A DNA stretch of 64,000 bases, from contig JADJLL010000005.1 of assembly GCA_016710095.1 (NCBI GenBank), positions 1,573-65,572 of the forward strand, given 5' to 3'. Origin of the DNA: Candidatus Eiseniibacteriota bacterium. Its GTDB lineage: Bacteria; Eisenbacteria; RBG-16-71-46. This document shows positions 5,104 through 55,577 of the stretch, piece by piece. Both the position numbers and the translations under genes were made by a program. The notes under the pieces were generated by a model. It did no database searches, was not told where the DNA came from, and was given only the letters and a program-made list of their open reading frames with translations. Position 1 is the stretch's first letter, and the number at the start of each line of letters is the position of its first letter.

Positions 5104-7512
5104 CTACTCGACGACCATCACGCGCCGCGTCGCCGTGAAGCCCGGCGCTTCGAGCCGCGCCAGGTAGAGCCCCGGCGCGAGGCCGTCGCCGCGCAGTGCG
5201 ACCGAGTGCGCGCCGGCTTCACGCGCGCCGTCCACCAGCGCGCGCACCATGCGGCCCTGCGCGTCGTAGAGCGCGAGCTTCGTGTGGCCGCCGACCGCGA
5301 GCGAGAACCGCAGCGTGCTCGTCGCACCGCCGCGCAGCGGGTTCGGAGCGGGCGCGGCGAACTCCGCGCGCGCCGCCGGGCCATCACCGACGCCCAGCGT
5401 GCCCGACGGCATCAGCGTCGCGACCGGCGACTCGTTGCCGTGGATGTCCACCGCCGTGAGCTTGTAGAAGTACGGCGTGGAGCCGCCCGCCACGTAGCCC
5501 GTGTCGCTCACCGCCGCGACCAGCGTCGCCGGCGACGGCGTGAACGAGACGGAAGTGCCGCGATACACGCGATAACCCGCGAGGTCGGCTTCGGCGTTCG
5601 GGTTCCAGTGCAGCGCGGTACCGCTCGCCGAGTACTGGCCGGTCAGCGGCGCGGGCGCGGCCGGAGCGACGTTGTCGACCGAGTAGCCCGAGTCCGCGTT
5701 GCTCGTCCACCACGACGAGCCGTAGTTCGCGAGCGCCATGATCATGAACGCGGTCTTCTTGTTCGAGCCACCCATCGAGTCGCCCTCGGTCGCCGCCACG
5801 TAGCTGTACGTGGACAGGTGCCGCGGCGTGACGTGCGCGAGCTCTTCCCAGAAGTAGTCCTGCGCGGCGTAGGTCGTGCGCAGGTAGCGCTTGCCGTTCA
5901 GCGACACGCCGTCCTCGGCCGCCGCGCCGGCGGTCGCGGCCGCGCGTGCGAGCTGCGCGACGAGCGCCGTGGGCACCGAGCGATACACGACGTAGTCCGA
6001 GATGTTGCGGTAGGCCGGGTCCGTGTCGAGAGGGCTGCCGTACCACGACACCTTCACCTGCCCACCCTGGTCGTTCGGGATGTCCTTCACGCTCGCGAGG
6101 ATCGGCTCGGCGCCCGAGTAGCCCCACTCGTCGAGCTTCTGCAGGCGGCAGCCCCAGGGCGAGTTGTAGTAGTCGTCCCATGCCACGTACGCGCCGCCGT
6201 TGCCCGTGGGAACGAGCCACGCGTTGGCCTGCGAGCTCGGCCCCGAGCCCACGACGAGGCCGTTGGCCGCCCAGAGCGGCGAGCCCGAGCTCGAGAGGCG
6301 CTGCGCGTACACGTCGGAGATGTCGCTTCGCGAATCCTGCCAGACGATCAGGATGCCGCCCTGACCGTCGGGCACGGCGCGAACGTAGCTCACGGCGCCG
6401 TTCGCGACGCGGATCGGCATGCCACACCGAACTCCATTGCGCGACGCCCGCCTGATCGAGCTTCTGGACGTACAGATCGGAGATCCGCCGCCGCGGCGCT
6501 GGTCACCCCACAGGAGCACGAGATGCCCGGCCGGATCCACCAGCATCTCGCTCAAGAACTGGGTGCTCGTCGCATTGCAGACCACGCTGCCGTTCGGGGC
6601 CCAGAACGGCGAGGTCGAGAAGTTGGAGAAGCTCGCCGCATAGACGTCGAAGTCCGCGCCACGCAGGTCCGACCAGCTGACGAAGTAGCGGTTCGACTTC
6701 GGCAGCGTGATGCGTGGCTCGAGTTGCGACCCCGCCGCGTCACAGAGCACGGCGCCGTTTGCGGCGTAGATCAGGAACCCGCTGTAGCCCACCACCTGCG
6801 TGTAGATGTCCGAGCCTCCCGAGCGCGAGTCCTGCCAGACGATGTGCGCGTAGCCGTTGTCGTCCACCTCGAAATCGGGGGCGCGCTGGTCGCCCGCCGC
6901 GTTGCAGACCACCTGCCCGTCCGCGGCAAGACTGGGGGCGCCGCCGAAGACCGAGAGGGCCTGAGCGTAGATGTCGTTCCCCGTCGTGCCGGAGTTGCGC
7001 GGATCCGTCCAGACGAACCAGGCCAAGCCTGCATTCGACTCGACTCTCAGCCCCGTCTGATTGCCCGTCGCCGTGCAGATGGGGACGCCGTTCGCCGCCC
7101 ACTGGGTCGCGCCGCCCTCGACGCGCTGCGCGTAGAAATCCGCTTGGCCGCCGGTGCGGTAGTCCTCCCAGGCGACGATGCACCCTCCGTAGGTGTCCGA
7201 GAAGAGCGCTGCCGGAAACTGGGAATCCGGCGCGCCGCAGACGAGCACGCCGGGCGCGGCGTACATCGCCGCGCCGGAAGCGTCGAAGCGCTGCACGTAG
7301 AGGTCGTAGCTCGACGACGAGGCGGAAAACAGGTTGAACGCCACGTACGTGCCGCCGTAGCCGTCGGGGCAAGTCCGCACGGAACTGGAGTACGACTGGA
7401 CGACCACGCCGAGCTTGTCGTGCGGCCACGCGGCCACGGCGACGGACGGGAGCGCCGCGGACGCGAACAGCGCGCCGAGCACGAAGAGGGTCATGCGCTT
7501 GCGAAGGGACAT
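5104..7512 (-). CDS. exported multi-repeat (beta-propeller-like) protein with FN3-like module and C-terminal FlgD-Ig/T9SS-like sorting domain
   Basis: Signal peptide MSLRKRMTLFVLGALFASAALPSVAVA. There are 7-8 repeats of about 52 aa with the motif W-x-D-x-R-x-G-x-x-D-[IVL]-Y-[AVT]-Q...W..NG. An FN3-like stretch (APAAPAPLTG...LHWNPN...GYRVYRG) follows. The tail is NPLRGG..LRFSL...LALYDAQGRMVRAL...GLYLARLEA. Confidence 0.85.
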   Translation of the reverse strand: MSLRKRMTLFVLGALFASAALPSVAVAAWPHDKLGVVVQSYSSSVRTCPDGYGGTYVAFNLFSASSSSYDLYVQRFDASGAAMYAAPGVLVCGAPDSQFPAALFSDTYGGCIVAWEDYRTGGQADFYAQRVEGGATQWAANGVPICTATGNQTGLRVESNAGLAWFVWTDPRNSGTTGNDIYAQALSVFGGAPSLAADGQVVCNAAGDQRAPDFEVDDNGYAHIVWQDSRSGGSDIYTQVVGYSGFLIYAANGAVLCDAAGSQLEPRITLPKSNRYFVSWSDLRGADFDVYAASFSNFSTSPFWAPNGSVVCNATSTQFLSEMLVDPAGHLVLLWGDQRRGGGSPICTSRSSIRRASRNGVRCGMPIRVANGAVSYVRAVPDGQGGILIVWQDSRSDISDVYAQRLSSSGSPLWAANGLVVGSGPSSQANAWLVPTGNGGAYVAWDDYYNSPWGCRLQKLDEWGYSGAEPILASVKDIPNDQGGQVKVSWYGSPLDTDPAYRNISDYVVYRSVPTALVAQLARAAATAGAAAEDGVSLNGKRYLRTTYAAQDYFWEELAHVTPRHLSTYSYVAATEGDSMGGSNKKTAFMIMALANYGSSWWTSNADSGYSVDNVAPAAPAPLTGQYSASGTALHWNPNAEADLAGYRVYRGTSVSFTPSPATLVAAVSDTGYVAGGSTPYFYKLTAVDIHGNESPVATLMPSGTLGVGDGPAARAEFAAPAPNPLRGGATSTLRFSLAVGGHTKLALYDAQGRMVRALVDGAREAGAHSVALRGDGLAPGLYLARLEAPGFTATRRVMVVE

Positions 7513-20207: not shown

Positions 20208-22166
20208 ATGGCCCCCGGTTCGCCCCGTTCCTTCCCGGTCGCACTCGCGCTCGCCGCGCTGTTCCTCGCGCTCGCCGCGGCGCCGGCCTTCGCGCTCAAG
20301 GTCACGACCTGGAACCTGCTCGCGTACGACCAGACCACCTGCGTCGGCCGGCAGCCGCACTTCCGCACCGTGATGGCGGCCATGAATCCCGACGTCGTGA
20401 TCGCGCAGGAGCTCAACTCCGCCGCGGGCAAGGACTCGTTCCTCGTGAACGTGCTCAACGTCGTGCAGCCGGGCGAATGGACGGGCACGTGGCTCGCGCT
20501 CGGCACCGAGGGCGGCGCGATCTTCTGGAAGCCGGCCAAGGTGAACGTGCAGAACATCACGAGCGTGGCGACCGGCGGGCCGCGCCCTGCGCTCGTCGGA
20601 CTCGTGAAGCCGGTCGGCTACCTCAAGAACCCGGGCTGGTTCCGGCTCTACTCGATCCACTTCAAGGCGGGAACCGCGGACACGGCGACGCGCCACATGG
20701 AGTGCTCGAACCTGCGCACCACGCTCAACAACCAGGTCACGACCGTCGTCGGCACGAACTTCCTGCTCGGCGGCGACACGAACTTCTACGGCGACTGGGA
20801 GAGCGGCTACCAGCGGCTCACCGAATCACAGGCCGACAACGACGGGCGCTGCCTCGACCTCTACAGCATGCCCGGCACGTGGAACCAGTTCGCGTACCGC
20901 ACCGTGCACACGCAGTGCCCCTGCCTGAGCGGCTGCGGACCGAACTTCTCCGGCGGCGGCATGGACGATCGCTTCGACATGATCCTGCAGTCGACGTCGC
21001 TGCGTGACGGCGCGGGCCTCGACCTGATCCCCACCGGGTACAAGGCGTTCGGCAACGACGGGCAGCACTACAACGACAACATCGACGGAGGCGGCTTCAA
21101 CACCGCCGTGCCGCTGTCGGTGGCGACGGCGCTCCGCAACGCCGCCGACCACATTCCCGTCGTGCTCGAGCTCCAGCTGCCCGCCAAGACGAGCGCGCCG
21201 CACGCGTTCGCGCTCGGCGACGCGATCGTCGGCGCGACGCACGCGCTGCCGCTGACCGTCGCGAACTCCGGCCCCACGCCGGCCGACACGCTGCGCTACA
21301 CGCTGACCGCGCCCGCGGGATTCGGCGCGCCGGCCGGCAACTTCAAGGCGGCCTCCGGCGTCGCGGGCAACGCGCACTCGATCTCGCTCGTCACGAGCAC
21401 GACCGGCGTGAAGGCCGGCACGCTCACCGTGAACTCGAACGATCCCGACACGCTCGCGAAGAGCGTCGCGCTCTCCGGCCGCGTGCTCGCGCATGCGGCG
21501 CCCTCGCTCGACTCGGCGGCCGTGCTCACCGCGCAGTCGCTCGACCTCGGCCAGTACCCGGCGGTCGGCTTCCCCGACGGCGAGGTCCGCGTGCACAACA
21601 AGGGCTGGGGCGCGCTCCAGGCGAGGCTCTCCGTGGCATCGGCGAACATCACCGGCGGCGCGGGACGGTTCTCGATCCCCGGCGGCTTCACTCCCGCGCT
21701 GCTCTCGGGCACGGGACAAACCTGGCCGGTGCGGTTCGACGCCGTGGGCGCGACCGCCGAGTCCACCTACACGGCGACGCTCACGTTCGGCACCGCGGAC
21801 GAGGCGCTGCCCGGTGCGACGGCGCTCTCGAATCTCACGGTCAGCCTGCAGGCGCGGGTGAGCGCGGCAGGTGTCGAAGTGGGCGGCGGCGCGCTGCGCT
21901 TCATGCCGCCGCGCCCGAACCCGGCGCGCGGCGTGACCGAGATGGCGTTCGAGCTGCCGACCGAGCTGGCCGTCGACCTCGCGGTCTACGACCTCGGCGG
22001 ACGGCGGCTCGCGACGCTCGCCAGTGGCCGGATGAGCGCCGGGCAGCACTCCGTGCGCTGGGATGCCGGCCTCGCCGACGGCCGTAAGACGGCTGCGGGC
22101 CTGTACTTCGTCCGCTTCACCGCCGGCGGCCTGACCAAGGTGTCGAGATTGGTCCTGCTGCCGTAA
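20208..22166 (+). CDS. exported endonuclease/exonuclease/phosphatase (EEP) family protein with beta-sandwich modules and C-terminal FlgD-Ig/T9SS-like sorting domain
   Basis: AGGAG lies 5 nt before ATG 20208. Signal peptide ...LALAAAPAFA. EEP motifs: KVTTWNLL, IAQELN, SIHFKAG, GGDTNFY, DDRFDMIL, DHIPVVLEL. Tail PNPARGVTEMAFELP..VDLAVYDLGGRRLATL...GLYFVRFTAGG. Confidence 0.85.
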   Translation: MAPGSPRSFPVALALAALFLALAAAPAFALKVTTWNLLAYDQTTCVGRQPHFRTVMAAMNPDVVIAQELNSAAGKDSFLVNVLNVVQPGEWTGTWLALGTEGGAIFWKPAKVNVQNITSVATGGPRPALVGLVKPVGYLKNPGWFRLYSIHFKAGTADTATRHMECSNLRTTLNNQVTTVVGTNFLLGGDTNFYGDWESGYQRLTESQADNDGRCLDLYSMPGTWNQFAYRTVHTQCPCLSGCGPNFSGGGMDDRFDMILQSTSLRDGAGLDLIPTGYKAFGNDGQHYNDNIDGGGFNTAVPLSVATALRNAADHIPVVLELQLPAKTSAPHAFALGDAIVGATHALPLTVANSGPTPADTLRYTLTAPAGFGAPAGNFKAASGVAGNAHSISLVTSTTGVKAGTLTVNSNDPDTLAKSVALSGRVLAHAAPSLDSAAVLTAQSLDLGQYPAVGFPDGEVRVHNKGWGALQARLSVASANITGGAGRFSIPGGFTPALLSGTGQTWPVRFDAVGATAESTYTATLTFGTADEALPGATALSNLTVSLQARVSAAGVEVGGGALRFMPPRPNPARGVTEMAFELPTELAVDLAVYDLGGRRLATLASGRMSAGQHSVRWDAGLADGRKTAAGLYFVRFTAGGLTKVSRLVLLP

Positions 22167-22175
22167 GGAAATCCG

Positions 22176-22400
22176 TCACCCCTTCGAGCCCTGGTCGGGA
22201 TCCTCCCCGGCCGGGGCTTCTTCATTTCCGGCAGGCTCGAATCCCGGACACGAAAGCACGGGCAGGCGGGGATAGCGCGGATAGGCCGGATCGAGTTTCG
22301 ACCGCTCGCACAGCAGGAATTCGCTGCGCGGTGTGAGCACGTGCTTCACGTGCGCGCAGCGATCGCAGAGTCCGGACGATCGAGGCTTCAGCAGCGGCAT
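22176..22400 (-). CDS. small Cys-rich hypothetical protein (74 aa; C-x2-C ... C ... C)
   Basis: MPLLKPRSSGLCDRCAHVKHVLTPRSEFLLCERSKLDPAYPRYPRLPVLSCPGFEP... has a zinc-ribbon-like Cys spacing. The upstream part of ORF 22176..22619 looks non-coding. Confidence 0.5.
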   Translation of the reverse strand: MPLLKPRSSGLCDRCAHVKHVLTPRSEFLLCERSKLDPAYPRYPRLPVLSCPGFEPAGNEEAPAGEDPDQGSKG

Positions 22401-22444
22401 GCGTGCGGTCTCCCGACGGTCGGATGTTGGGTGAGGGGGCTGCG

Positions 22445-22463
22445 GTGTCGGGGCAAACGACAC
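22445..22463. promoter_or_regulatory. inverted repeat GTGTCG-N7-CGACAC, candidate enhancer (UAS) about 100 bp upstream of the sigma-54 promoter
   Basis: Perfect 6-bp arms read from the sequence. The position relative to the -24/-12 element is typical for bacterial enhancer-binding proteins. Confidence 0.3.
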
Positions 22464-22561
22464 TTCTTTCGGGCTCACGGGTGCCACACGACGGACGACA
22501 ACAAGGGCCAGAAACCGCTGGTGGCTTGGTAGAGAACAGGTTGAAGGCGCGGCGCGGCGAT

Positions 22562-22577
22562 TGGCCTCCGACTTGCA
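22562..22577 (+). promoter_or_regulatory. sigma-54 (-24/-12) promoter TGGCCTCCGACTTGCA
   Basis: Matches TGGCAC-N5-TTGCW at TGGC and TTGCA with exact GG-N10-GC spacing. It sits about 60 nt upstream of ATG 22637. Confidence 0.55.
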
Positions 22578-22636
22578 GAGCATACCTGTGAAACCACACC
22601 CCTTGCTCCTGCCCCCCACGAGGAGGAGAACAAAAA

Positions 22637-22898
22637 ATGAAGAAACTGCTTCTTGCTCTGACGATGATCGCCGCGTTCGCCACGGTCGCGATGGCCGAGA
22701 GTCACTACCCCGGTGGCCCGCAGGACCAGACGGAAGACCAGACCGCCACGCCGAGACCCAGGGCGTCGGTCAGGTGATCGAACCGACTCCGGCTCCCGAC
22801 ATGGTCGTTCGTCCGGTGCCCGAGCCGGGAACGATGGCGCTGGCCTCGATGGGCCTCATCGCCTCGGCGCCGCGGCCCGCAAGCGTCGCGAGAAGTAG
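22637..22898 (+). pseudogene. tiny exported PEP-CTERM-anchored protein; needs two frame changes as sequenced
   Basis: AGGAGGAG (22621-28) lies 8 nt before ATG 22637. Signal peptide MKKLLLALTMIAAFATVAMA, with a TGA at 22775 in this frame. The next frame gives ...VIEPTPAPDMVVRPVPEPGTMALASMGLIA. The third frame gives LGAAARKRREK-stop (22896-98). Joined together these form a PEP motif, a helix and a basic tail. Confidence 0.55.
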
Positions 22899-22973
22899 CC
22901 CGACCCCCACGGCGCGCTTGTCCCCACGGGCGCGCCGACTCGGACGTCATCTGCCCAGCTGACCCCAAAAGGG

Positions 22974-23016
22974 ACGGCGGCGAGGAACCACTTCCTCGCC
23001 GCCGTGTCCGTTTTCA
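22974..23016 (+). terminator. Rho-independent terminator (14-bp stem ACGGCGGCGAGGAA / TTCCTCGCCGCCGT, loop CCAC, then GTCCGTTTTC)
   Basis: Arms at 22974-22987 and 22992-23005; T tract at 23011-23014. Confidence 0.75.
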
Positions 23017-23031
23017 GTAGTATCGCGCGCC

Positions 23032-25152
23032 ATGTCCCGACCCTCGAACACTCCCGAGTCCCGCGCGAAGACCGCAGCGAAGCGCCCGTCGCCGCTGCTG
23101 GTCCACGCCTCGTCGACGCCCGACCCCGCGCAGGCGCGAGCGTTCACGCTCGCCGGCCTCGTCACGATCGCCGCGTACGCGGTCGCCGTCCTCGCGATCC
23201 AGATGCGCGCGCACCCCGTGGGCGACGTCTTCACCGAGACCGACTTCTACGGCGCGTACGCCGAAGGCGCGCGCCTGATCCAGCACGGCAAGCTCGACCC
23301 CTCGCGCTACGGCGTGATCGGCCCCGTCTACGAGATCGCGCTCGCGCTCGCCGGCGCGATCTTCCGCGACCTCTACGTGGCGGCTCAGGCGCTCTCGCTC
23401 GCGGGCATGATCGTCACGCTGTGGGCGTGGCAACGGCTGTGGACCGTGCGCGCCAACGCCGCGACCGCTTGCGCCGGGCTGCTGCTGCTCGTGGTGAACG
23501 GCCAGTTCCTGCGCTGGGGCTACTCGGTCACGACCGACGCGGTCGCGCTCGCGCTGCAGTCGCTCGCGTTGCTGCTGCTGCTCGGACGCACGCTCACGCC
23601 GCGTCGCGCCGTGACGGCGGGCGCGGTCGCCGCGCTCGCCTTCCTCACGCGCTACAGCGCCGTCGCGCTGCTGCCCGCGGGACTGCTCGCCGTGCTCGCG
23701 GGCGGCACCGACACGCCGCGCGAACGCCGGCGCGAGGTCGCGCTCGCGTTCGCCGCCGGCTTCGCCGGACTCGTGCTGCCGTGGATGGCGTACTCGTTCG
23801 CGAGCGGCGCGCGCACGACGTTCCAGCTGCACCACAACATCGCGTACGAAGTGTTCGCGCGCTCGCGCGGCATCGCGTGGGACACGTACCAGCGCGAGAT
23901 GCAGCCGCAGTTCCCGACGCCGTGGTCCGTGCTCGCGCGCGATCCCGGCGCCGTCTTCGCGCGCATGGCGCTCAACGTCGTCGAGCACTTCCGGCTCGAC
24001 GCCGAAAAGGTCGCGGGCTTGCCGCTCGCCGCGGCCGCGCTCGCGGGCGTCGCACTCGCCTGGCGCGACGGTGCGCTCAAGCGCTTCTGGCCCGTGCTCG
24101 CCGCGGCCGCGCTCACGTTCCTCGCGCTCGTGCCCGCGTTCCATTCCGAGCGCTACTCGCTCCCGCTGCTGCCCGTGTGGGCGACGTTCGCGGCGCTCGC
24201 GTTCTCCTCGCCGCTGCTGGCGCTCGCGCTCGACGCGGGTCGTGGCCGCCGTGTGTGGCTCAAGGCGCTGCTGATCGCGTTGCCGCTCGCGCTCGCCGTG
24301 CGTGAGTCCGCCGCGCTGCAGCGCCGCACGCTCGCGCTGCTGCCGGTCGAGGCGCGCACGCTGGCGCTCGAGACGCGCGGCGAGTTCCGCCCGGGCGACA
24401 AGGTCATCGCGCGCAAGCCGCACTTCGCGTTCTACGCCGGCCTGACGCCGGTGCCGTTCCCGTTCGCCGACTCGCTGTCGCAGATCGCGTCCGTGGCGCG
24501 CGAACAGGGCGTGCGCTGGCTGTACTTCTCGTGGCCCGAGGCCGAGATGCGCCCCGCCGTGTCGTTCCTGCTCGACACGACCTCGCGCGTGCCCGGACTG
24601 CGCGTCGTGCGCGCGGTGAAGGATCACCCGGCGGTGCTCTACGAAATCCTCCCCGGCTTCGGGCCGGAACCGGAGTGGTTCATCGATTCCGGCATCCGGG
24701 AACTCCATCGCGCCCGCGCGAAACTGCTCGTCGATCGAACCGATTGGCGTGCCCGGGTGTATGTCGCTCTGTACGAACGCCGGCTCGAGCACTGGGAAGC
24801 CGCCCAGCAGCTGCTCGACGAAGCGTTGCCATGGGCCGGCGAGGATCCCGAGTTGTACCTGCTGACGGCGGACAATCTCGCGCAGTCCGGAAGCCCCGGA
24901 GCCGCGCGCACGATGCTCGATCGCGCCGAGCCGCTCGTCGGCGGCGATCCGCGCGTCGCGCTGACCCGTGGCTGGATCGCGGCCGTGGACAACGATCCGG
25001 CCGGCGCCGCGCGGTGGTGGCGTCCGCTGATCGAGTACACCGACGACGCACGCACGCTGTACCGCATGCACGACGTGTTCGCCGCCACGAAGGACGGCGC
25101 CGCGCAGGCGGCCGTGGACGCGAAGCTGCGCGCGCGAGGGCTGAAGCCGTGA
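23032..25152 (+). CDS. GT-C-fold (ArnT/PMT, GT39-like) polytopic membrane protein with C-terminal TPR-like region
   Basis: 706-aa product. About 12 hydrophobic helices follow a short cytoplasmic N-terminus, and a soluble helical-repeat C-terminus follows them (EAAQQLLDEALPWAGEDPELYLLTADNLAQSGSPGAA...). The family call rests on topology and pattern, not a diagnostic motif. Confidence 0.6.
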   Translation: MSRPSNTPESRAKTAAKRPSPLLVHASSTPDPAQARAFTLAGLVTIAAYAVAVLAIQMRAHPVGDVFTETDFYGAYAEGARLIQHGKLDPSRYGVIGPVYEIALALAGAIFRDLYVAAQALSLAGMIVTLWAWQRLWTVRANAATACAGLLLLVVNGQFLRWGYSVTTDAVALALQSLALLLLLGRTLTPRRAVTAGAVAALAFLTRYSAVALLPAGLLAVLAGGTDTPRERRREVALAFAAGFAGLVLPWMAYSFASGARTTFQLHHNIAYEVFARSRGIAWDTYQREMQPQFPTPWSVLARDPGAVFARMALNVVEHFRLDAEKVAGLPLAAAALAGVALAWRDGALKRFWPVLAAAALTFLALVPAFHSERYSLPLLPVWATFAALAFSSPLLALALDAGRGRRVWLKALLIALPLALAVRESAALQRRTLALLPVEARTLALETRGEFRPGDKVIARKPHFAFYAGLTPVPFPFADSLSQIASVAREQGVRWLYFSWPEAEMRPAVSFLLDTTSRVPGLRVVRAVKDHPAVLYEILPGFGPEPEWFIDSGIRELHRARAKLLVDRTDWRARVYVALYERRLEHWEAAQQLLDEALPWAGEDPELYLLTADNLAQSGSPGAARTMLDRAEPLVGGDPRVALTRGWIAAVDNDPAGAARWWRPLIEYTDDARTLYRMHDVFAATKDGAAQAAVDAKLRARGLKP

Positions 25153-26181: not shown

Positions 26182-28344
26182 ATGCGCACGCTGCTCTCGC
26201 TCACCCTGGCGCTCACGCTCTCGCTCGTCGCCGCACGCACCGCCGCGGCGGGCGACGCCGCGCGCTTCCTCGTCGCCCAGCTCGCGGAAGCCTCCGACAA
26301 GGCGCAGTTCGCGTGGAAGCCCGACGCCGCCCAGCAGGCGGCCGCGCTCGGCCTGCGCGTGCGCGCGCCGCTGCGCGACGGCCGCATGCGCGCGCGCACC
26401 ACGCGGCTCGACGAGGCCGTGCTCGCGCACCCGGCGCTGCGCGGCTTCGCGCCCGACCGCATCGTGCTGCTCGAAGCGCCGGACTCGGCGACGGCCGCGG
26501 CCGCACGGACCGCGCTCGCCGACGGCGGTGGCGTGGACTGGATCGAGCCACTCGCCTCACGCGCGCTGCAGATGACCGAGCTGCACGGGGCCGGCGCACG
26601 GCCCGGTGCGCTCGCCGCGCTCGACTCGCTGCCCAACGATCCGCTGCTGCGCGATTCGCGGCAGTGGGGACTGTGGAACGTCGGCGGCGTGGGCGGCGGC
26701 TTCTACGGCGGCGTGCCGCGCGCCGACATTCACGTGGTCGAAGCGTGGCGCGTCACGACGGGCGACAACGCGCTCAAGCTCGCGGTCGCCGACACGGGCA
26801 TCGATCCCGCGCAGCCCGAACTCGCCGGGCTCATGCCCGACGGCTCGCCGCGGCTCGTGGACATGGTCTCGGTCACCTTCGAAGGCGCCGATGCGTGGGC
26901 GGACTCCAACGGCCACGGCACGCCGGTCGCCGGCGCGATGGCGGCGCGGACGAACGACGGCGCGCGCTTCGCGAGCGGCGGCGTGGCCGGCGTGTGCGGC
27001 GGCGACGGCGCACTCGTCGCGGGCTGCCGGATCGTCCCGATCAAGATCGCCGAAGGACACTCGGGCGAGTCGAGCTCGTTCGAGGTCTCGCGCGCCATGC
27101 TGTGGGCCGCGGACGTGGGCGCGCGCGCGATGAACCTGTCGTTCGCGGGCTACGAAGGCAGCCGCCTCGAACGCCTGTGCATGACGTACGCGCTGCTGCG
27201 CGGTTGCGTCGTGGTCGTCGCCGCGGGAAACGAAGGCGCGCGCGACAACCCGCGCCGCCCGATGTACCCGGCCGCGTACGCCGCCGACGGACTCGGTATT
27301 CAAGTCGGCGCGAGCACGCAGTTCGACGACCGTGCGACGTTCTCGTCGTACGGCCCCGGGCTCGACTTCGTCGCGCCGGGCGTGAACATCTGGACGACGT
27401 TCATGACGTACCCGAGCGCCGCGGGCGCGGTGTACGACGGACTCGTCGCCGCTTCCGGCACGTCGTTCGCCGCGCCGATCGCGGCGGGCGCGGTCGGACT
27501 GCTCGCCGCCGCGCGCCCCGAACTGATCGAGAACGACTTCCAGCACGTGCTGCGCGAAAGCGCCGACGACGTGTACCTGCCCGGCTGGGACGAGCGCACG
27601 GCGTGGGGACGGCTCAACGTCGGCCGCGCGCTCGCGTCGGTCGGGCCGGAGTACGGCATCTGGCACGACGAAGTGCGCGCCGACTCCGTCGTGCTCGCGG
27701 GCTCGGGCACGCTGTCGATCGGCGAGAGCGGCCCCGGCACGCTCGACCGCTTCCGCGGGCTGCTCGCCGCGACGCGCTGGGCGACGTACGCGACCGTGAC
27801 GCTGCCGGACTCGTTCGCCGACACCGTGCGCGTGTGGCCGCGCGTGGGCGGCACGTTCGCCGCGCGCGGCGACTACCAGTTGCCGTACTTCACGCCCGGC
27901 GCCGAAGTCGTCGCGCGGAACGGCCGCACGTTCACGCTGCGCGGCTGGCTGTATCGCGCCGACTCCGACACCTGCGCGACGTGCGTGGACGCGTGGGTGC
28001 CGCTGCCGCCCGAGTACGCGCGCTTCGGCTTCACCGTGATCGGGCGCGTGAACCGCTCCCGCCCGCCCGCGCCGGTCGGGGATGCGACGGGCGGCGCGGG
28101 CGCCGCCCACGTGCGCGCCTGGCCGAGCCCGTTCCGCGGTGCGATCGCGCTCGCGCTACCGGGCGCGGGCAGCGTGCGCGTGCTCGACGTGAACGGCCGC
28201 GTCGTGCGCGAGTGGCGCGCGAGCGGCGCCGAAACGCGCTGGGACGGCCGCGATCGCGACGGCCGCGACGCGCCGCCCGCGCTGTACTTCGTGCGCTGGC
28301 GGGGCGCGGACGGCTCCGGCCCGCGATCACCACGCGCGTCGTGA
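26182..28344 (+). CDS. exported S8 (subtilisin-family) serine peptidase with C-terminal FlgD-Ig/T9SS-like domain (true stop probably 28358 after a frame change near 28313-28323)
   Basis: Signal peptide MRTLLSLTLALTLSLVAARTAAAG. Catalytic triad contexts VADTGID, SNGHGTPVAG and SGTSFAAPIAAG. Tail WPSPFRGAIALAL...VRVLDVNGRVVREW...ALYFVRW. Confidence 0.9.
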   Translation: MRTLLSLTLALTLSLVAARTAAAGDAARFLVAQLAEASDKAQFAWKPDAAQQAAALGLRVRAPLRDGRMRARTTRLDEAVLAHPALRGFAPDRIVLLEAPDSATAAAARTALADGGGVDWIEPLASRALQMTELHGAGARPGALAALDSLPNDPLLRDSRQWGLWNVGGVGGGFYGGVPRADIHVVEAWRVTTGDNALKLAVADTGIDPAQPELAGLMPDGSPRLVDMVSVTFEGADAWADSNGHGTPVAGAMAARTNDGARFASGGVAGVCGGDGALVAGCRIVPIKIAEGHSGESSSFEVSRAMLWAADVGARAMNLSFAGYEGSRLERLCMTYALLRGCVVVVAAGNEGARDNPRRPMYPAAYAADGLGIQVGASTQFDDRATFSSYGPGLDFVAPGVNIWTTFMTYPSAAGAVYDGLVAASGTSFAAPIAAGAVGLLAAARPELIENDFQHVLRESADDVYLPGWDERTAWGRLNVGRALASVGPEYGIWHDEVRADSVVLAGSGTLSIGESGPGTLDRFRGLLAATRWATYATVTLPDSFADTVRVWPRVGGTFAARGDYQLPYFTPGAEVVARNGRTFTLRGWLYRADSDTCATCVDAWVPLPPEYARFGFTVIGRVNRSRPPAPVGDATGGAGAAHVRAWPSPFRGAIALALPGAGSVRVLDVNGRVVREWRASGAETRWDGRDRDGRDAPPALYFVRWRGADGSGPRSPRAS

Positions 28345-29863: not shown

Positions 29864-30860
29864 TTGAGCAGCAACGAATCCGATCTGCAGGCCATCCGCC
29901 AGCTGGCCTCCGCGCGCGAGCGCATCCTCGCCGAGCTGAGCAAAGCCATCGTCGGCCAGGACGAAGTGATCGAGCAGCTGCTCACCGCGCTGTTCGCCGG
30001 TGGCCACGTGCTGCTGGTCGGCGTCCCGGGCCTCGCGAAGACGCTGCTCATCTCGAGCCTCGCGCGCGTGCTCGACCTCGAGTTCAAGCGCATCCAGTTC
30101 ACGCCCGACCTCATGCCGTCCGACATCACCGGCACGGACATCCTCGAGGAAGACGCCACGACCGGACGGCGCGCCATGCGCTTCATTCGCGGACCGGTGT
30201 TCGCGAACGTCGTGCTCGCCGACGAAATCAACCGCACGCCGCCCAAGACGCAGGCCGCGCTGCTGCAGGCGATGCAGGAGAAGGAAGTCACCGCCGGCGG
30301 CCAGACGTTCTCGCTGCCGCTTCCGTTCTTCGTGCTCGCGACGCAGAACCCGATCGAACTCGAGGGCACGTACCCGCTGCCCGAGGCGCAGCTCGACCGC
30401 TTCATGTTCAACGTGCAGGTCGGCTATCCGTCGCAGACCGAGGAAGAGCAGATCGTGATGAGCACGACGAGCGCGCAGGTGCCGAAGCTCGAGCGCGTGC
30501 TCGGCGGCGACGACATCCTCGCGCTGCAGCAGCTCGTGCGCCGCGTGCCGGTGACCGACCACGTCGTGCGCTACGCCGTGCGCCTCGTGCGCGCGACGCG
30601 CGGCGGCGAAGGCGCGCCGGACTTCGTGCGCCAGTGGGTCAGCTGGGGCGCCGGACCGCGCGCCTCGCAGTTCCTCGTGCTCGGCGCCAAGACGCGCGCC
30701 GTCATGCGTGGCCGCTTCGCGCCCGGCATCGAAGGACGTGCAGGCCGTCGCCGCGGCGGTGCTGCGCCACCGCGTCGTCACGAACTTCACCGCCGAAGCC
30801 GAAGGCGTGAAGCCCGACCGCATCATCGCGGACCTGCTGAAGAACGTCCCGACCGACTGA
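29864..30860 (+). CDS. MoxR-family AAA+ ATPase; frameshifted as sequenced at 30734-30735
   Basis: TTG 29864 has GAGG 5 nt upstream. Motifs [38 protein letters not shown] and [22 protein letters not shown]. The conserved end [43 protein letters not shown]-stop (30858-60) is read only if one G of gaaGGacg is dropped. Confidence 0.9.
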
Positions 30861-30897
30861 CGCACCGCCCCTCACGTCCGACCTCGAGGAGAACCGC

Positions 30898-32322
30898 ATG
30901 GCGGATTCGCAGCCGGCGCACTTGAAGCGGCAGATCGGCCTGTACGCCGCGACGGCGATCACGGTCGGCAACATCATCGGCTCGGGCATCTTCCGCTCGC
31001 CGCACTCGGTCGCGTCCGAACTGACGACGTTCCCGCTCGTGCTGACCGCGTGGATCGTCGGCGGCCTGCTGTCCATCTGCGGCTCGCTCGTGCTCGCGGA
31101 ACTCGCGGTCACTCATCCGAAGACCGGCGGGCTCTACGTGTTCCTGCGCGAGAGCTTCGGCGACGCGTTCGCGTTCGTGTTCGGCTGGGCGAACCTCTGG
31201 GTGATCAAGCCGACGGTCGTCGCGTCCATCACGAGCGTGTTCGCGCTCTACTTCTGCCAGGTCATGGGCTGGAAGGACGACACGCAGTTCGCCGTCGGCG
31301 CCGCGGCCATTCTCTTCCTCACGTTCGTGAACTGGCTCGGCGTGAAGGAGGGCACGCGCACGCAGAGCCTGCTCACGACGCTCAAGGTGATCGGCATCCT
31401 CGGACTGTGCGTGGCGGCGTTCACGATTCCAGCGACGCATCCGGCCTCGGCGCTCGCCGAAGGCGCCGTCGCCGAAGCGACCACCAAGCCGCTCATGACC
31501 GCGTTCTTCGTCGCCATGGTGAGCATCCTCTTCGCGTACGACGGCTGGACGGACAGCACGTACGTCGCGGGCGAGGTCGTGAACCCGCAGCGCACGATGC
31601 CGATCGCGATCGTGTGGGGCACGTGGGCCGTGATCGGCGTGTACGTGCTCACGAACTTCGCGTACTTCCACGTGCTCGGCGCCGAGGGCGTGCGCTCGTA
31701 CGAGGCCGTGGGCTCCGAGACCATCCACCGCCTGCTCGGCGACTGGGGCGCGCGCGCGCTCGCCGTGCTCGTCGCCGTGTCCACGTTCGGCACCACGAAC
31801 GGCTCGATCCTCACCGGCCCGCGCGTCACGCAGGCGATGGCGGCCGACGGACTGCTCTGGAAGCCGATGGCCGCGCTCGACCCGAAGCGCGAGACGCCGT
31901 CGCTCGCGCTCTGGGTGCAGGCGCTTCTTTCGATCGTGTGGCTCAAGGTGGCCGGCGGCTTCGACGACGTGTCGGGCTGGTTCGTGACGACGTCGTGGAT
32001 GTTCTACGGGCTCACGACCGCGGCGATCTTCGTGCAGCGCGCCCGCGAGAAGCGCGGCGAGCTCGCGGCGCCGTCGTACCGCACGCCGGGCTTCCCGGTG
32101 ACGCCGATCCTGTTCATCGTGACGACGGTCGCGATCATCTACGCCGACTTCACCTCCAGCACGCCGCTGGAGTTCGACGGCGTCACGGGCCCGCTCGCCT
32201 CCGCGCTCGCGCTCGTGCCGCGCGCGGGACTCGGCGTGCTCATCGCGCTGCTCGGCTTCCCGGTGTACGCGCTGTGGAAGGGCCGCTCCGGCGGCTCCGC
32301 CGGCTCGCGGAAGAACGCGTGA
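30898..32322 (+). CDS. APC-superfamily amino acid permease
   Basis: [21 protein letters not shown]...[16 protein letters not shown]...[10 protein letters not shown] is the APC signature. 12-TM-like, 474 aa. Confidence 0.9.
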
Positions 32323-33302
32323 GCGCCTTCGGAACCTCCGGGCCCGCCGGGCCCGCCGCGAGAAGCGGCGCGCAGCCCGATCGCGGCGTGGCTCGCGGCG
32401 GCGGCGCCGAGAACCGGCACTACCTCGACCCGGAAGTCGTCGCGCGTCTCGGCCATCTCGACGTGCGCGCGCGGCTCGTGGTCGAAGGCTTCATCTCGGG
32501 CATGCACCGCTCGCCGTTCCACGGCTTCAGCGTCGAGTTCGCCGAGCACCGGCCGTACATGCCGGGCGACCCGCTCAAGAACCTCGACTGGAAGGTGCTC
32601 GCGAAGAGCGACCGCTACCTGGTCAAGCAGTACACCGAAGAAACCAACCTGCGCTGCCACCTGCTGCTCGACCTGTCGGGCAGCATGGGCTTCCGCTCGA
32701 CGCGCGCGTCCATGAGCAAGCTCGAGTACGCGAAGTCCCTCGCCGCGGCGCTGTCGTACCTCATGCTGCGCCAGCAGGACGCGGTCGGCACGCTGCTCTT
32801 CGCCGAGGGGCCCGTGCAGTTCGTGCCCGCGCGTTCGGTGCGCTCGCACCTCGACGTGCTGCTCGCGACGCTCGCGAGCGGCCAGCCGCAGGGCCGCACG
32901 AAGCTCGGGCCCGTGCTGCACGAACTCGCCGAACGCGTGAAGCGCCGCGGGCTGATCGTGCTGCTCTCCGATCTCATGGACTCGCCCGACGAAGTGCTGT
33001 CGGGGCTGCAGCACTTCCGGCACCGGCACCACGAAGTGATCGTGTTCCACCTGCTCGATCCGGACGAAGTCGAGTTCCCGTACCACGACACGTCCACGTT
33101 CGTGGACATGGAGTCGGGCGAGCGCATCACGACCGAGCCGTGGGAGATCGGCGCGCGCTATCGCGAGCGGCTCGCGGCGTGGCAGGAGAAGTACCGCCGC
33201 TCGTGCCGCGAGCAGCGCGTGGACTACGTGCCGCTCGACACGCGCACGCCGTTCGACCGCGCGCTGCTGGCCTACCTCGAGAAGCGCGCGAGCCTGCTGT
33301 GA
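32319..33302 (+). CDS. DUF58 family protein (MoxR-associated, vWA-like)
   Basis: GTG 32319 overlaps the permease stop (GTGA). Motifs HRSPFHGFSVEFAEHRPYMPGDPLKNLDWKV.AKSDRYLVKQYTEE and LLLDLSGSMGF. Confidence 0.85.
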   Translation: MSAFGTSGPAGPAARSGAQPDRGVARGGGAENRHYLDPEVVARLGHLDVRARLVVEGFISGMHRSPFHGFSVEFAEHRPYMPGDPLKNLDWKVLAKSDRYLVKQYTEETNLRCHLLLDLSGSMGFRSTRASMSKLEYAKSLAAALSYLMLRQQDAVGTLLFAEGPVQFVPARSVRSHLDVLLATLASGQPQGRTKLGPVLHELAERVKRRGLIVLLSDLMDSPDEVLSGLQHFRHRHHEVIVFHLLDPDEVEFPYHDTSTFVDMESGERITTEPWEIGARYRERLAAWQEKYRRSCREQRVDYVPLDTRTPFDRALLAYLEKRASLL

Positions 33303-33304
33303 AG

Positions 33305-33937
33305 ATGCGCGTGCTGTCCGTGCTCACGTTCCTCGCCGGCGCGCTCGTGCTCTGGGTGGCGCTCGGCATCCTCGGCGAAGCGCCGGGCAGCGCGCCCGAG
33401 TCGCGCCACCTGCGCCGGATGAAGAAGCGCCTCGCCGTGCCCGCCTCGTACACGCCCTACACGCTCGCCGACTTCCAGGCGCTGCCGCACGGCATCGCGC
33501 TCGAGCACCGCGGCGTTCGCGAACGCACCGCCGTGAGCTTCGAGGGCTGGAACCAGCGCATGATGATGGCCGGCGACGGCGACGCGCATCTCGAACTCGT
33601 CGCCTCGCCGCGCGCGTCCGGAGGGCGCGACACCGTCTACGTCACGGCCGAGGTCACGCCGCCGTTTCGCCGTGGCGGCGCCGCGTCGAACTGGAACTAC
33701 GACCGCCTGCTCGCGCTCTTCCGCCCCAATCGCGGCGGCCAGACGCCTTGGGAGCAGGGCCCCGCGCGCGTGCGCGTGAGCGGCTGGCTGCTCTACGACT
33801 ACCAGTACGACCACGCGCCGACGAGCTGGTCGCTCGAGAACGCCGCGCCGCGCGCGACGGGCTGGGAGATCCACCCCGTGACGCGCATCGAGCGCTGGGA
33901 TGAGGCGCACGCGGCGTGGATCGAGGTGCCGCGATGA
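33305..33937 (+). CDS. membrane-anchored hypothetical protein in the MoxR/DUF58 operon
   Basis: ATG 33305 lies 3 nt after the DUF58 stop. N-terminal TM MRVLSVLTFLAGALVLWVALGIL. G/C third positions. No family recognised. Confidence 0.6.
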   Translation: MRVLSVLTFLAGALVLWVALGILGEAPGSAPESRHLRRMKKRLAVPASYTPYTLADFQALPHGIALEHRGVRERTAVSFEGWNQRMMMAGDGDAHLELVASPRASGGRDTVYVTAEVTPPFRRGGAASNWNYDRLLALFRPNRGGQTPWEQGPARVRVSGWLLYDYQYDHAPTSWSLENAAPRATGWEIHPVTRIERWDEAHAAWIEVPR

Positions 33938-36003
33938 ACTTCCTCAATCCGCTCGTGCTGTTCGGGCTGGGCGCCGCCGCGATCCCCATCCTCATTCACC
34001 TGTTCACCAAGCGCCGCCCGCGTGAGGTGCAGTTCTCCTCGCTCGAGTTCCTCACCGAAGTCCACCAGAGCGAGATCCGCCGGCTGAAGCTCAAGCAGTG
34101 GCTGCTGCTGGCCCTGCGCACGCTCGCGATCGCGGCGCTCGCGATCGCCATGGCGCGGCCCGCGGTGAAGGGCGGCACCGGTGGCAGCGCGTCGAGCAGC
34201 CTCGTCGCGCTCGTCGACGTGAGTGGCAGCATGAGCGCGCCCGGCCCCGACGGCCGCACGCTCGCCGCCTCCGCGCGACGCGCCGTGGAGGACCTGCTCG
34301 CGACGCTCGGCCCCGGCGACGAGCTGCTGCTCGTGCCGTACGACCGCGCGCCGCGCCCCGTGTCCGAGAAGCCGCTCGGCGACGCGGGACGGCTGCGCGC
34401 CGCGGCCACGGCCATCGCGCCCACCGCGCACGTCACCGATCACCGCGCCGCGCTCGAACTGGCCGCGCGCGCGTTGAGCGAAGCCCGCGCGCTCAACCGC
34501 GAACTGTTCTGGATCTCCGACTTCCAGCGGACGGGCTTCGCGCGGGGCGGGGGCGCCGGAGGCGCACCGGAGGTGCGCGTCGCCGAAGGCCCGTGGAGCA
34601 ACGTGCGCACGTACCTCGTGCCGCTCAGCCCGCGCAGCCGCGCGAACGCCGCGCTCACCGACGCCCGCCTGACGCCGGCCGAAGGCGGCGCGGCGCTCGA
34701 CGTGCGCGCGCGCGCGTTCGGCGTGACGCCCGCGGACTTCGCGGTCGAGGCGCGCGAGGTCACGTCCGACGGCGCGCCGGCCGAGCGCCTCGGCTCGGGC
34801 TTCGTCTCGCTCGGAGCGAGCGGCGAGTCCGGCACACTGCTGCCGCTCTCGCGCACACCCGATGCCGGCGGAGAAGCGCTGCTGCCCGACGACGCGCTCG
34901 CGCTCGACAACCGCCGCGTGTTCGCGTCGGGCCGCGCCGGCGCGCTGCACGTGCTGCTGCGCGAGGACGGCGATCCGTCCGCGCTGCGCTTCGCGCTCGA
35001 GGCGGGCGGCGAACTGTCCGGGCTCGACGTCCGCGTCGTGGACGGCGCGACGCTCGCGGCGCAGGCCGACGGCGCGGACGCGATCGTGATCGGCGACGTC
35101 GAACGCCTCGGGCCCGCGGAACTGCAGGCCGTGCTCGACGCCTGGCGCGGCGGCGGCGCGCTGCTGCTCGTGCCCGGCACGCGCGCGGACGCCGCGTGGT
35201 GGAACGAAACGCTGCTGAAGGAAGTGCAGGCCGGCACGCTCGGAGCGCTCGAAGCCGCGCCCGCGGGCGCGGAGTGGCGCCTGCGCCTCGACGCCGCGGG
35301 CCATCCCGCGCTCGAAGGCTTCCCCGCGCGTCCCGGCGAAGCGCTGTCGGCCGCGCGCTTCGTGCGCGCGCGCACGCTGCGCCCCGCCGCCGGTGCGCGC
35401 GTGATCGCCAGCTTCGACGGCGCGCACGCAGCGCTCGTCGAATCGCCACGTGCGCTCGTGTTCGCGACACCGCTCGATCCCGCAAGCTCGGACTTCGCGA
35501 CGAGCGGCGCGTTCCTGCCGCTCGTGCACCAGTGCGCGCGCGTGCTCGCGCGCGGCACCGCCGCCGCGTCGCTCGCACCGGGCGACGTGTGGCGCGCGCC
35601 CGCGAGCACCGGCGACTGGCGCGTCGTGGGCGAGGACGGCCGCGAAGTGTCCTCCACGCTCACCGGCGCCGCGGGCGGCTCGCGCCTCACGACCGCGCCG
35701 CTCGAAGCGCCCGGGCTCTACCGCGTGTGGCAGGGCCGCCAGCTGCGCGGCAGCTTCGCCGTGAATCCCGATCCCGCGGAATCCGACCTCGCCTCCGCGG
35801 ACGAGCGCACGCTGCTCGCGGCGTTCCCCGCGGGGCGCGCCACGGTGCTGCGCGCGGGCGAGTCGCTCGCGAACCGCGTGCGCGAGGCGCGCTACGGCCG
35901 CGAGCTCTGGCCGCTGTTCGTCGGCATCGCGCTGCTCCTGCTGGCGCTCGAGAGCCTGCTCGGGCGGCCGGCGACCGGCGAAACCGGAAAGGGGAAGTCA
36001 TGA
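33934..36003 (+). CDS. BatA-like N-terminal double-TM domain protein with vWA-type metal-site motif
   Basis: The ATGA overlaps the upstream stop. MNFLNPLVLFGLGAAAIPILIHLF.KRR matches the aerotolerance BatA N-terminal domain. LVALVDVSGSMSA is a MIDAS-like DxSxS. There is a C-terminal TM. Confidence 0.8.
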   Translation: MNFLNPLVLFGLGAAAIPILIHLFTKRRPREVQFSSLEFLTEVHQSEIRRLKLKQWLLLALRTLAIAALAIAMARPAVKGGTGGSASSSLVALVDVSGSMSAPGPDGRTLAASARRAVEDLLATLGPGDELLLVPYDRAPRPVSEKPLGDAGRLRAAATAIAPTAHVTDHRAALELAARALSEARALNRELFWISDFQRTGFARGGGAGGAPEVRVAEGPWSNVRTYLVPLSPRSRANAALTDARLTPAEGGAALDVRARAFGVTPADFAVEAREVTSDGAPAERLGSGFVSLGASGESGTLLPLSRTPDAGGEALLPDDALALDNRRVFASGRAGALHVLLREDGDPSALRFALEAGGELSGLDVRVVDGATLAAQADGADAIVIGDVERLGPAELQAVLDAWRGGGALLLVPGTRADAAWWNETLLKEVQAGTLGALEAAPAGAEWRLRLDAAGHPALEGFPARPGEALSAARFVRARTLRPAAGARVIASFDGAHAALVESPRALVFATPLDPASSDFATSGAFLPLVHQCARVLARGTAAASLAPGDVWRAPASTGDWRVVGEDGREVSSTLTGAAGGSRLTTAPLEAPGLYRVWQGRQLRGSFAVNPDPAESDLASADERTLLAAFPAGRATVLRAGESLANRVREARYGRELWPLFVGIALLLLALESLLGRPATGETGKGKS

Positions 36004-45084: not shown

Positions 45085-45170
45085 GGGTTCCTGACCGGAT
45101 GAAGGAAAGGCGGAGCGCAGAGGCGCGTTCGGGCCACCGGACATGATCCGCCCCTCGGAGAGCCCGAACG

Positions 45171-45186
45171 CGCATGTGCCCCGCCA
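45171..45186 (-). promoter_or_regulatory. candidate sigma-54 promoter for rtcA-rtcB (minus strand TGGCGGGGCACATGCG)
   Basis: Exact GG-N10-GC spacing with TGGC and TGC conserved, about 85 nt upstream of the rtcA ATG. It is weaker than consensus (TGGCAC-N5-TTGCW). The adjacent regulator is a sigma-54 activator. Confidence 0.35.
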
Positions 45187-45344
45187 CACTACAACGCCTC
45201 GCCGACGGTTCCCCCGAAGCCGCCGGCTTGATCACCCGTCACATCACAATGCGTACCGCGCGAGCCGAACCGGAATGGGCACGGGACAGCACGCCTGTTC
45301 GCAACGCCTTGGGCCCCGCGAGGGGGCGCGAGTGAAGTTCGGGC

Positions 45345-55186: not shown

Positions 55187-55577
55187 GTGTGGGACTTTCG
55201 CACAAAGGCAGATGGGCCGGAGGGTCGGCGCCAACGGCGCCGCGGGCGCCGCAGGCGCCAGAGGCGCCGACGGCGCCTCCTGCCAACACGCCCAGCATGC
55301 GGCCCGCACCCGCGTCGCGTCAGGGCCACCGCGACGAACGCGGGCCGCGCTCGGCCCAGCGTTGTCCACGAAGCGAAAAGGCATGCGCCGCAACAGGAAT
55401 ACCCCCGCCGGAAGGGGCATATTCGCGTGCAGGCCGTGCGACTCCGTGGCTATACTGCGCGCCGCTCCGCTCATTCGCGACGCCGGTGGTCACGCGCCCT
55501 GGGGCGCGCGCACGAACGTCGCTTCATCACGCGGTCCGGAGTGCCTCCCGGCGCCGCGCTTTCTCGGAGGTTCCGTC

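Follow-up and report, generated by a model that had tools for sequence, protein, structure and literature searches.

Proteins of the PEP-CTERM/exosortase system (Haft 2006; TIGR02595, PF07589) carry a signal peptide and, at the very C-terminus, a VPEP motif, a hydrophobic helix and an Arg/Lys tail. The body between them is of low complexity and rich in Ser, Thr, Pro and Asp, and the gene is a single-gene operon with long non-coding DNA upstream, remote from the exosortase (PMC1569441). An exosortase is expected in the same genome and, by Haft's criterion, more than two PEP-CTERM proteins. In the proteobacterial PEP-CTERM box the gene is preceded by an enhancer, a spacer of ~63 nucleotides (nt), a GG-N10-GC promoter and a ~60-nt leader, with ~71 nt from promoter to start codon; this pair of motifs, the sigma-54 promoter (motif 2) and the PrsR enhancer with TTTACA (motif 1), has been reported in Proteobacteria only (Haft 2006, PMC1569441). 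A further described case is pepA of Aquincola tertiaricarbonis and Zoogloea resiniphila, a flocculation PEP-CTERM gene with a mapped -24/-12 promoter and dependence on RpoN (PMC9850573). Here we describe a tiny gene of the same general plan, found in a 64,000-nt stretch of a metagenome-assembled genome (MAG) of Candidatus Eisenbacteria (contig JADJLL010000005.1; the whole stretch is called the window below). The G+C content of the window is 71%.

The locus probably carries a monocistronic gene under sigma-54 control, the Candidatus Eisenbacteria orthologue of a gene for a secreted protein of ~86 amino acids (aa) with a PEP-CTERM tail, which would be sorted by an exosortase encoded elsewhere. 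It agrees with the described genes in the plan of the protein and its low-complexity body, in its single-gene setting behind long non-coding DNA, and in the succession of putative enhancer, spacer, GG-N10-GC promoter and leader; like pepA, it lies behind a -24/-12 promoter, here predicted from the sequence. In other respects it stands apart. Unlike the usual PEP-CTERM proteins, the Eisenbacteria protein is very small, with a mature part of ~40 residues, and its tail is nearly invariant throughout the phylum instead of varying from species to species. The gene is a strictly syntenic orthologue and not a scattered paralogue, while its hosts, which belong to the Fibrobacteres-Chlorobi-Bacteroidetes (FCB) group, otherwise show sorting domains of the type IX secretion system (T9SS) and have no exosortase in the loci examined. 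The putative enhancer, too, differs from that of the PEP-CTERM box: it reads TGTCGG-N7-CGACACTTCTT, without TTTACA (absent from both strands between 22300 and 22700), and its distance from the promoter is longer and fixed at 112-116 nt.

The tiny protein and its orthologues

The protein consists of a Sec signal peptide, an acidic variable region of ~40 residues rich in Pro, Thr and Gly, and a nearly invariant PEP-CTERM tail (PVPEPGTMALASMGLIALGAAARKRR). Its open reading frame (ORF) begins at ATG 22637, 8 nt after the Shine-Dalgarno sequence AGGAGGAG (22621-22628), and passes through three frames of the plus strand. Frame 1, open from 22637 to 22777 and closed there by a stop, encodes in its segment 22637-22752 the signal peptide MKKLLLALTMIAAFATVAMA and the beginning of the variable mature part. 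Frame 2, which encodes VIEPTPAPDMVVRPVPEPGTMALASMGLIA, contributes in segment 22755-22862 the stretch TQGVGQVIEPTPAPDMVVRPVPEPGTMALASMGLIA with the PEP motif and the first half of the membrane helix. Frame 3 (22863-22898) ends the helix and adds the basic tail, LGAAARKRREK, before a TAG stop. Third-position GC moves through the three frames in turn along the ORF, which indicates that the coding signal really shifts between frames. Removal of one GA and restoration of one base give the product MKKLLLALTMIAAFATVAMAESHYPGGPQDQTEDQTATPTQGVGQVIEPTPAPDMVVRPVPEPGTMALASMGLIALGAAARKRREK, whose tail shows no replacement relative to the orthologues. In the signal peptide a basic N-terminus is followed by a hydrophobic core and, before E, an A-x-A site, a design kept in 32 orthologues as judged by inspection.

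In searches with hidden Markov models (HMMs), the frame-corrected product scored above the curated cut-offs of both family models, at 29.1 bits for PF07589 (cut-off 20.7) and 16.8 bits for TIGR02595 (cut-off 16), and the 30-aa tail alone gave 33.2 and 19.9 bits, respectively. In the uncorrected sequence the whole domain lies in no single frame, and the frame-2 fragment alone reaches 21.9 bits against PF07589. By the HMM criterion the tiny product is a member of the PEP-CTERM domain family, an assignment that concerns the domain and does not include membership of the exosortase system. Beyond the tail it matched no full-length PEP-CTERM subfamily of NCBIfam. Here it is unlike PepA: the NF033554 model has 261 positions, and the Eisenbacteria match covers the tail only (24 bits, cut-off 80). 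The PEP motif is the only one of its kind within the window.

The initial annotation of this DNA had proposed a monocistronic sigma-54 unit for a tiny protein with signal peptide and PEP-CTERM tail, and had named frame breaks borne out by reads, together with orthologous loci without an ORF, as a finding that would tell against it. The orthologues proved to carry an intact ORF in a single frame. At least 24 distinct Candidatus Eisenbacteria loci encode an intact protein of 76-105 aa at this position, and a database search returned intact proteins of 85-88 aa with 55-94% identity from Candidatus Eisenbacteria MAGs, several of them named PEP-CTERM sorting domain-containing protein. Every annotated element (inverted repeat, promoter, Shine-Dalgarno sequence, signal peptide and the parts of the PEP-CTERM region) is in place on direct reading, and the proposed unit is supported by the HMMs, by the intact orthologues and by the conservation of its elements.

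Orthologous loci were gathered down to about 40% protein identity, which yielded 24 distinct upstream regions. Among 32 aligned proteins, the 23 residues PVPEPGTMALASMGLIALGAAAR are invariant save for rare I/M changes, and the mature part of ~40 residues is hypervariable in both sequence and length. For the tail, 24 distinct nucleotide versions differ pairwise by 0.40 at third codon positions and by 0.005 at positions 1 and 2, so that the constraint falls on the protein, not on the RNA.

The surroundings of the gene are conserved as well. The shared gene order is FlgD_ig protein, 74-aa gene, tiny gene, PMT_2-TPR gene, LamG-domain gene and S8 protease. The 74-aa gene (22176-22400, minus strand) begins with MPLLKPRSSGLCDRCAHV, shares the intergenic region with the tiny gene and is divergent from it; it adjoins the tiny gene in 39 sequences (38 fetched loci and the window). 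Its product has the Cys pattern CxxC...C...C and no match in Pfam or NCBIfam. On the other side, the PMT_2-TPR gene and then the LamG-domain gene follow 3' of the tiny gene in all orthologous loci examined. In the window this downstream neighbour (23032-25152, plus strand) encodes a 706-aa glycosyltransferase of GT-C type, which resembles protein O-mannosyltransferases in its PMT_2 membrane domain followed by C-terminal TPR repeats; its link to the tiny protein is one of synteny alone. The PMT_2 match is weak (29.5 bits, cut-off 26.1), and NCBIfam gave no match for this protein. Its architecture is presumably comparable to that of the eukaryotic TMTC type.

One locus from outside the phylum by its label, L024 (DATJXF010000130.1, Candidatus Acidiferrales), has the complete Eisenbacteria-type arrangement of Na/Ca exchanger, 74-aa gene, tiny gene, PMT_2-like ORF and motifs of the 3' untranslated region (3' UTR). 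This suggests an error of binning or classification.

The two frame breaks of the tiny gene

What do the two breaks in the tiny ORF represent? Six loci from independent samples with the gene order of the window (L001-L006) served as reference. They are 89% identical to the window over 13.5 kb and 95% identical in nucleotides over the tiny-gene locus, and all encode an intact protein of 86 aa. Compared with them, the window has GAGA for GA at 22753-22756, an insertion of 2 nt (22753-54 or 22755-56), and one base fewer between 22862 and 22863. The insertion lies in the length-variable part of the protein and adjoins a strain-variable site (ACC/ACG). What is missing is the last base of an Ala codon, which is GCG in L001-L003 and GCC in L004-L006 (alignment column 469). 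The three-frame layout given in the initial annotation was right, with both breaks inside the ranges proposed for them; it had been regarded as unusual, but it comes down to two small indels in a window with other frameshifted conserved genes.

Two such genes were confirmed. In the MoxR gene (AAA_3, 29864-30925) an extra A near 30732 (CGAAGG, with CGAGG in L007) throws the last ~40 residues out of frame, and the next frame still yields the C-terminal part. In the GH31 glycosidase gene (50131-52193) the signal peptide and the PF13802 N-terminal domain lie in one frame and the catalytic domain in another, with one base apparently missing in GGCAC-AGC near 50481. Two further breaks are probable: the ADP-forming acetyl-CoA synthetase (2617-4858, minus strand) is split between Ligase_CoA_2, truncated at 139/162, and ATP-grasp_5, and the N-terminal membrane part of a LytS-type histidine kinase (53024-55200, minus strand) is spread over two or three frames. 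Frame breaks in conserved genes of the window amount to roughly one per 9 kb. The called product of the frameshifted tiny gene, P0087 (62 aa), occurs on one contig only, of 179,346 bp, whereas the intact P0001 and P0002 occur on many. The breaks in MoxR and GH31, the two probable ones, the single-contig product and the position of the deleted base at a polymorphic site make consensus error the likelier source, and we consider that the indels are probably consensus errors of the assembly of a mixed population rather than marks of a genuine recent pseudogene.

Two observations speak against this view. Two indels within 110 nt of a 261-nt gene exceed a uniform error rate, and the 13.5 kb aligned with L001 show no other frame break. 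They make a real, recent pseudogene possible. It would have arisen by two independent slippage mutations, GA to GAGA and the loss of one base in GCSCTC, while the flanking promoter, leader and terminator had not yet decayed. The indels do break the frame relative to every intact orthologue, relaxed selection after a first hit would account for a second one in so short a gene better than uniform error does, and six neighbouring genes over the 13.5 kb have the same length as in L001. However, if at least two other broken conserved genes and two more probable ones were read in the same way, ~10% of the genes would be pseudogenes, and this in a free-living bacterium. Indels aside, the tail codons still specify the invariant sequence; the frameshifted product is known from a single contig; and the deleted base falls where strains differ between G and C, a pattern that consensus errors in mixed populations typically show. 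We therefore regard inactivation as possible but rather unlikely. Programmed frameshifting was rejected, since the orthologues are all encoded in one frame and plain indels account for the difference in the window.

The MoxR gene itself belongs to an aerotolerance-type operon (29864-36003) in which an amino-acid permease gene lies between the MoxR and DUF58/BatA genes, in the same order as in L007.

Promoter, inverted repeat and transcript

The sigma-54 type promoter TGGCCTCCGACTTGCA occupies 22562-22577 of the plus strand, with GG at 22563-64 (-24) and GC at 22575-76 (-12) in the form GG-N10-GC, and transcription is predicted to start near 22587-22589. Upstream of it, at 22445-22470, lies the inverted repeat (G)TGTCG-N7-CGACA(C) followed by TTCTTTC, a putative enhancer-like site. 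As bare motifs both are weak: TGGC-N7-TTGCW occurs twice in the window, with 0.44 occurrences expected, and the repeat proved unremarkable by itself as a motif match in a chance test. Their significance rests on conservation across loci.

This conservation extends over orthologues of 47-94% identity, which keep the -24/-12 element, the inverted repeat, the Shine-Dalgarno sequence and the terminator. A GG-N10-GC element is present 54-84 nt 5' of the start codon in all 24 distinct upstream regions. Most loci show it as TGGCC-N6-(T/A)TTGC, the most distant ones as CGGTAYG-N4-CTTGC; its spacing is fixed, and the intervening bases vary freely. The repeat behaves similarly, with TGTCGG and CGACACTT conserved and the spacer bases variable: it reads TGTCGG-N7-CGACA(C)TTCTT in most loci, and a recognisable variant stands in the more distant ones. 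No further exact copy of it was found in the window. Comparison across loci thus supports the reading of the element as a sigma-54 promoter.

The start of the repeat lies 112-116 nt 5' of the promoter start in every measured case. Its separation from the 74-aa gene, in contrast, ranges between 45 and more than 200 nt. This argues that the repeat belongs to the sigma-54 promoter. The fixed phase, of ~11 helical turns, is compatible with looping of the DNA by an enhancer-binding protein. One could instead take the repeat (22445-22463) for an operator of the divergent 74-aa gene. In the window it is just 45 nt upstream of that gene's start codon at 22400, and the two genes are divergent neighbours in all 39 sequences mentioned above. 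This is improbable, given that in L029, L086 and L093 the two start codons are 409-426 nt apart instead of about 237 nt, yet the repeat still stands 112-116 nt from the -24 element.

The transcript would open with a leader (22578-22636) that includes the block CCCCTTGCTCC (22599-22609). Across loci this block is conserved as CCCCTTGC(C/T)TC, and its anti-Shine-Dalgarno CUCC can pair with the Shine-Dalgarno sequence. In single-sequence folds the pairing probability of the latter was 0.6-0.99 in 21 of 22 orthologues and 0.34 in L007; RNAalifold on a MAFFT alignment gave no consensus structure for the leader. The folds suggest that the Shine-Dalgarno sequence may be sequestered.

Structure is more evident at the other end. 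After the stop codon the 3' UTR forms a hairpin at 22910-22937, CGGCGCGC / loop TTGTCCCCACGG / GCGCGCCG, whose helix 1 is 92.9% paired, with four pairs showing compensatory change. Its loop core UCCCCACG is invariant in 17 aligned 3' UTRs; the window contains the motif a single time, on this strand, and so do nearly all orthologous loci. A branched intrinsic terminator follows at 22941-23014, ending in TTTT, as seen both in a terminator scan and in the RNAalifold consensus. Its base helix CGGAC (22941-45) / GUCCG (23007-11) closes the structure right before the U run; within it lie a short helix, CCC 22954-56 / GGG 22971-73, and the main stem-loop. The strong terminator of the initial annotation was recovered by the scan as the stem-loop 22974-23005 with its T run, GTCCGTTTT; helix 4 is 94.5% paired, with six pairs changed on both sides. 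Over the whole 3'-UTR structure 94.3% of cells are paired. The number of pairs changed on both sides is 14, compared with 6.0 +/- 1.5 in shuffles and no more than 6 in slid controls. Covariation supports a conserved RNA structure in the 3' UTR of the tiny gene. This RNA may serve as a stabiliser, a protein-binding site or the source of a 3'-UTR-derived small RNA. Rfam gave nothing near gathering score in 22100-23200, which covers leader and 3' UTR.

The hexamer TAGTAT (23018-23023) stands 8 nt before the ATG of the PMT_2-TPR gene, and most listed orthologues have a TAnnnT hexamer 8-10 nt before this ATG (TACAAT, TAGAAT or TACACT elsewhere). This suggests a promoter of the glycosyltransferase gene itself, with a leaderless or nearly leaderless mRNA. 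As the glycosyltransferase gene probably has its own promoter, the tiny gene would be monocistronic.

The window holds one sigma-54 activator, RtcR (45483-46982, adjoining rtcBA), which indicates that a sigma-54 system exists in the organism; PrsK, PrsR and PrsT were not found in the window. The earlier remark that no cognate activator lies there agrees with this result. RtcR is part of an RNA-repair module (42851-46982), with rtcB and rtcA on the minus strand divergent from rtcR. With a TGGC-N7-ATGC site (45172-45186, minus strand) in the rtcR-rtcA intergenic region, the module illustrates a sigma-54 regulon inside the window.

A second small PEP-CTERM gene was seen in a related MAG (L039, 7059-13184). 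It starts at ATG 9843, has a TGGCAC-N5-CTGGC site ~146 nt upstream, and is flanked by genes for a hybrid histidine kinase and an NtrC-type sigma-54 response regulator. This regulator scores 348.5 bits against TIGR02915 (PrsR), below the cut-off of 502.6, and about equally against AtoC and NtrC. The pair is a candidate regulatory system for the PEP-CTERM genes of the lineage. The complete Eisenbacteria chromosome OY970178.1 (L035) also has a small PEP-CTERM gene that is related.

Exosortase, glycosyltransferase neighbour and significance

No exosortase was detected in the window, either by Pfam on the called genes or by an ad hoc HMM and tblastn in all six frames, which bears out the initial annotation. 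It had taken this absence as unusual. That judgement does not hold, because isolated single-gene operons behind long upstream regions account for more than 65% of PEP-CTERM genes (Haft 2006, PMC1569441), and an exosortase-free neighbourhood is the rule for them. In the fetched loci we screened membrane-rich ORFs with Pfam, scanned for the CSG active-site motif and searched with an HMM built from five exosortases. Exosortases were found within 10 kb in 5 of ~45 PEP-CTERM loci from outside Eisenbacteria, so the screens work. The membrane-rich ORFs that had been considered as exosortases were assigned by Pfam to Na/Ca exchangers, permeases, an MFS transporter, Cons_hypoth698 proteins and a TMEM260-like protein O-mannosyltransferase.

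Three points weigh against the reading of the gene as a sigma-54-dependent member of an exosortase system. The same screens found no exosortase within 10 kb of the gene in ~35 Eisenbacteria loci (~0.6 Mb). Neither a cognate activator nor rpoN was seen in the sequence examined. The figures for conservation of the tail are partly circular, the relatives having been retrieved through the tail. On the other side, PEP-CTERM proteins with different bodies occur in Eisenbacteria MAGs, namely L039 (from the MAG of L021), L044 (from the MAG of L025) and L066, and this variety speaks for a sorting system in the phylum. We found no paper that treats Eisenbacteria together with exosortase or PEP-CTERM, and general papers on Eisenbacteria gave no usable annotation.

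The window also encodes secreted proteins with C-terminal domains for T9SS type A sorting (Por_Secre_tail/FlgD_ig) at 5104-7512 (minus strand), 20208-22166 and 26182-28344 (both plus strand). The organism has, accordingly, T9SS-type sorting signals alongside the PEP-CTERM signal.

The synteny with the glycosyltransferase gene opens a different possibility, in which the tail is not, or not only, an exosortase signal and the tiny protein is a membrane-anchored micro-protein that acts as substrate or membrane partner of the adjacent PMT_2-TPR enzyme. This would explain at once the invariant helix, within a tail constant in 32 proteins beside a hypervariable mature part, and the presence of the enzyme gene 3' of the tiny gene at every orthologous locus. 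The lack of a nearby exosortase at ~35 loci, compared with 5 finds in ~45 non-Eisenbacteria loci, is in line with it, and Thr, Ser and Pro abound in the mature region, as they should in a target of O-glycosylation. Yet the tail passes the curated PEP-CTERM cut-offs, the differently bodied proteins of L039, L044 and L066 argue for general sorting, the glycosyltransferase gene appears to have a promoter-like hexamer of its own, and synteny alone does not show an interaction. We think this possibility quite unlikely. A broader version, which is also unlikely, would see a phylum-wide module of the 74-aa Cys-rich gene, the sigma-54-gated micro-protein and the GT-C glycosyltransferase with TPR repeats, in which the PEP-CTERM-like anchor serves the glycosyltransferase rather than an exosortase, together with a new regulatory RNA element made of the 3'-UTR hairpin with its UCCCCACG loop and the Shine-Dalgarno-sequestering leader.

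For the preferred reading, as a sigma-54-controlled gene of an exosortase-sorted protein, the following course can be proposed. An enhancer-binding protein would bind the conserved TGTCGG-N7-CGACA ~115 bp upstream, roughly 11 helical turns away, and would activate sigma-54 RNA polymerase at TGGC-N7-TTGC, a promoter that conservation supports. The short mRNA thus made would end in the structured 3' UTR and branched terminator, a fold backed by covariation. From family knowledge and synteny, we infer that the pre-protein would be exported, anchored by its C-terminal helix and processed at the PEP motif by an exosortase encoded elsewhere. Processing would release or attach the ~40-aa peptide, which the adjacent PMT_2-TPR enzyme may O-glycosylate.

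The finding itself is largely ordinary: the window contains one copy of a small, separately switched gene found across Eisenbacteria. Its three-frame ORF shows that such a layout in a MAG should be compared with relatives and with frame breaks on the same contig before it is treated as biology. What is new is the putative enhancer/promoter pair outside Proteobacteria, the nearly invariant tail of 23 residues, the fixed synteny with the PMT_2-TPR gene and the structured 3' UTR. The control of PEP-CTERM genes by sigma-54 and an enhancer would thereby be extended from Proteobacteria to an uncultured phylum of the FCB group. The tiny gene provides a small and easily recognised marker locus for Eisenbacteria, and its invariant tail, together with the glycosyltransferase neighbour, makes it a concrete substrate for testing exosortase-type sorting of a peptide of ~40 residues.

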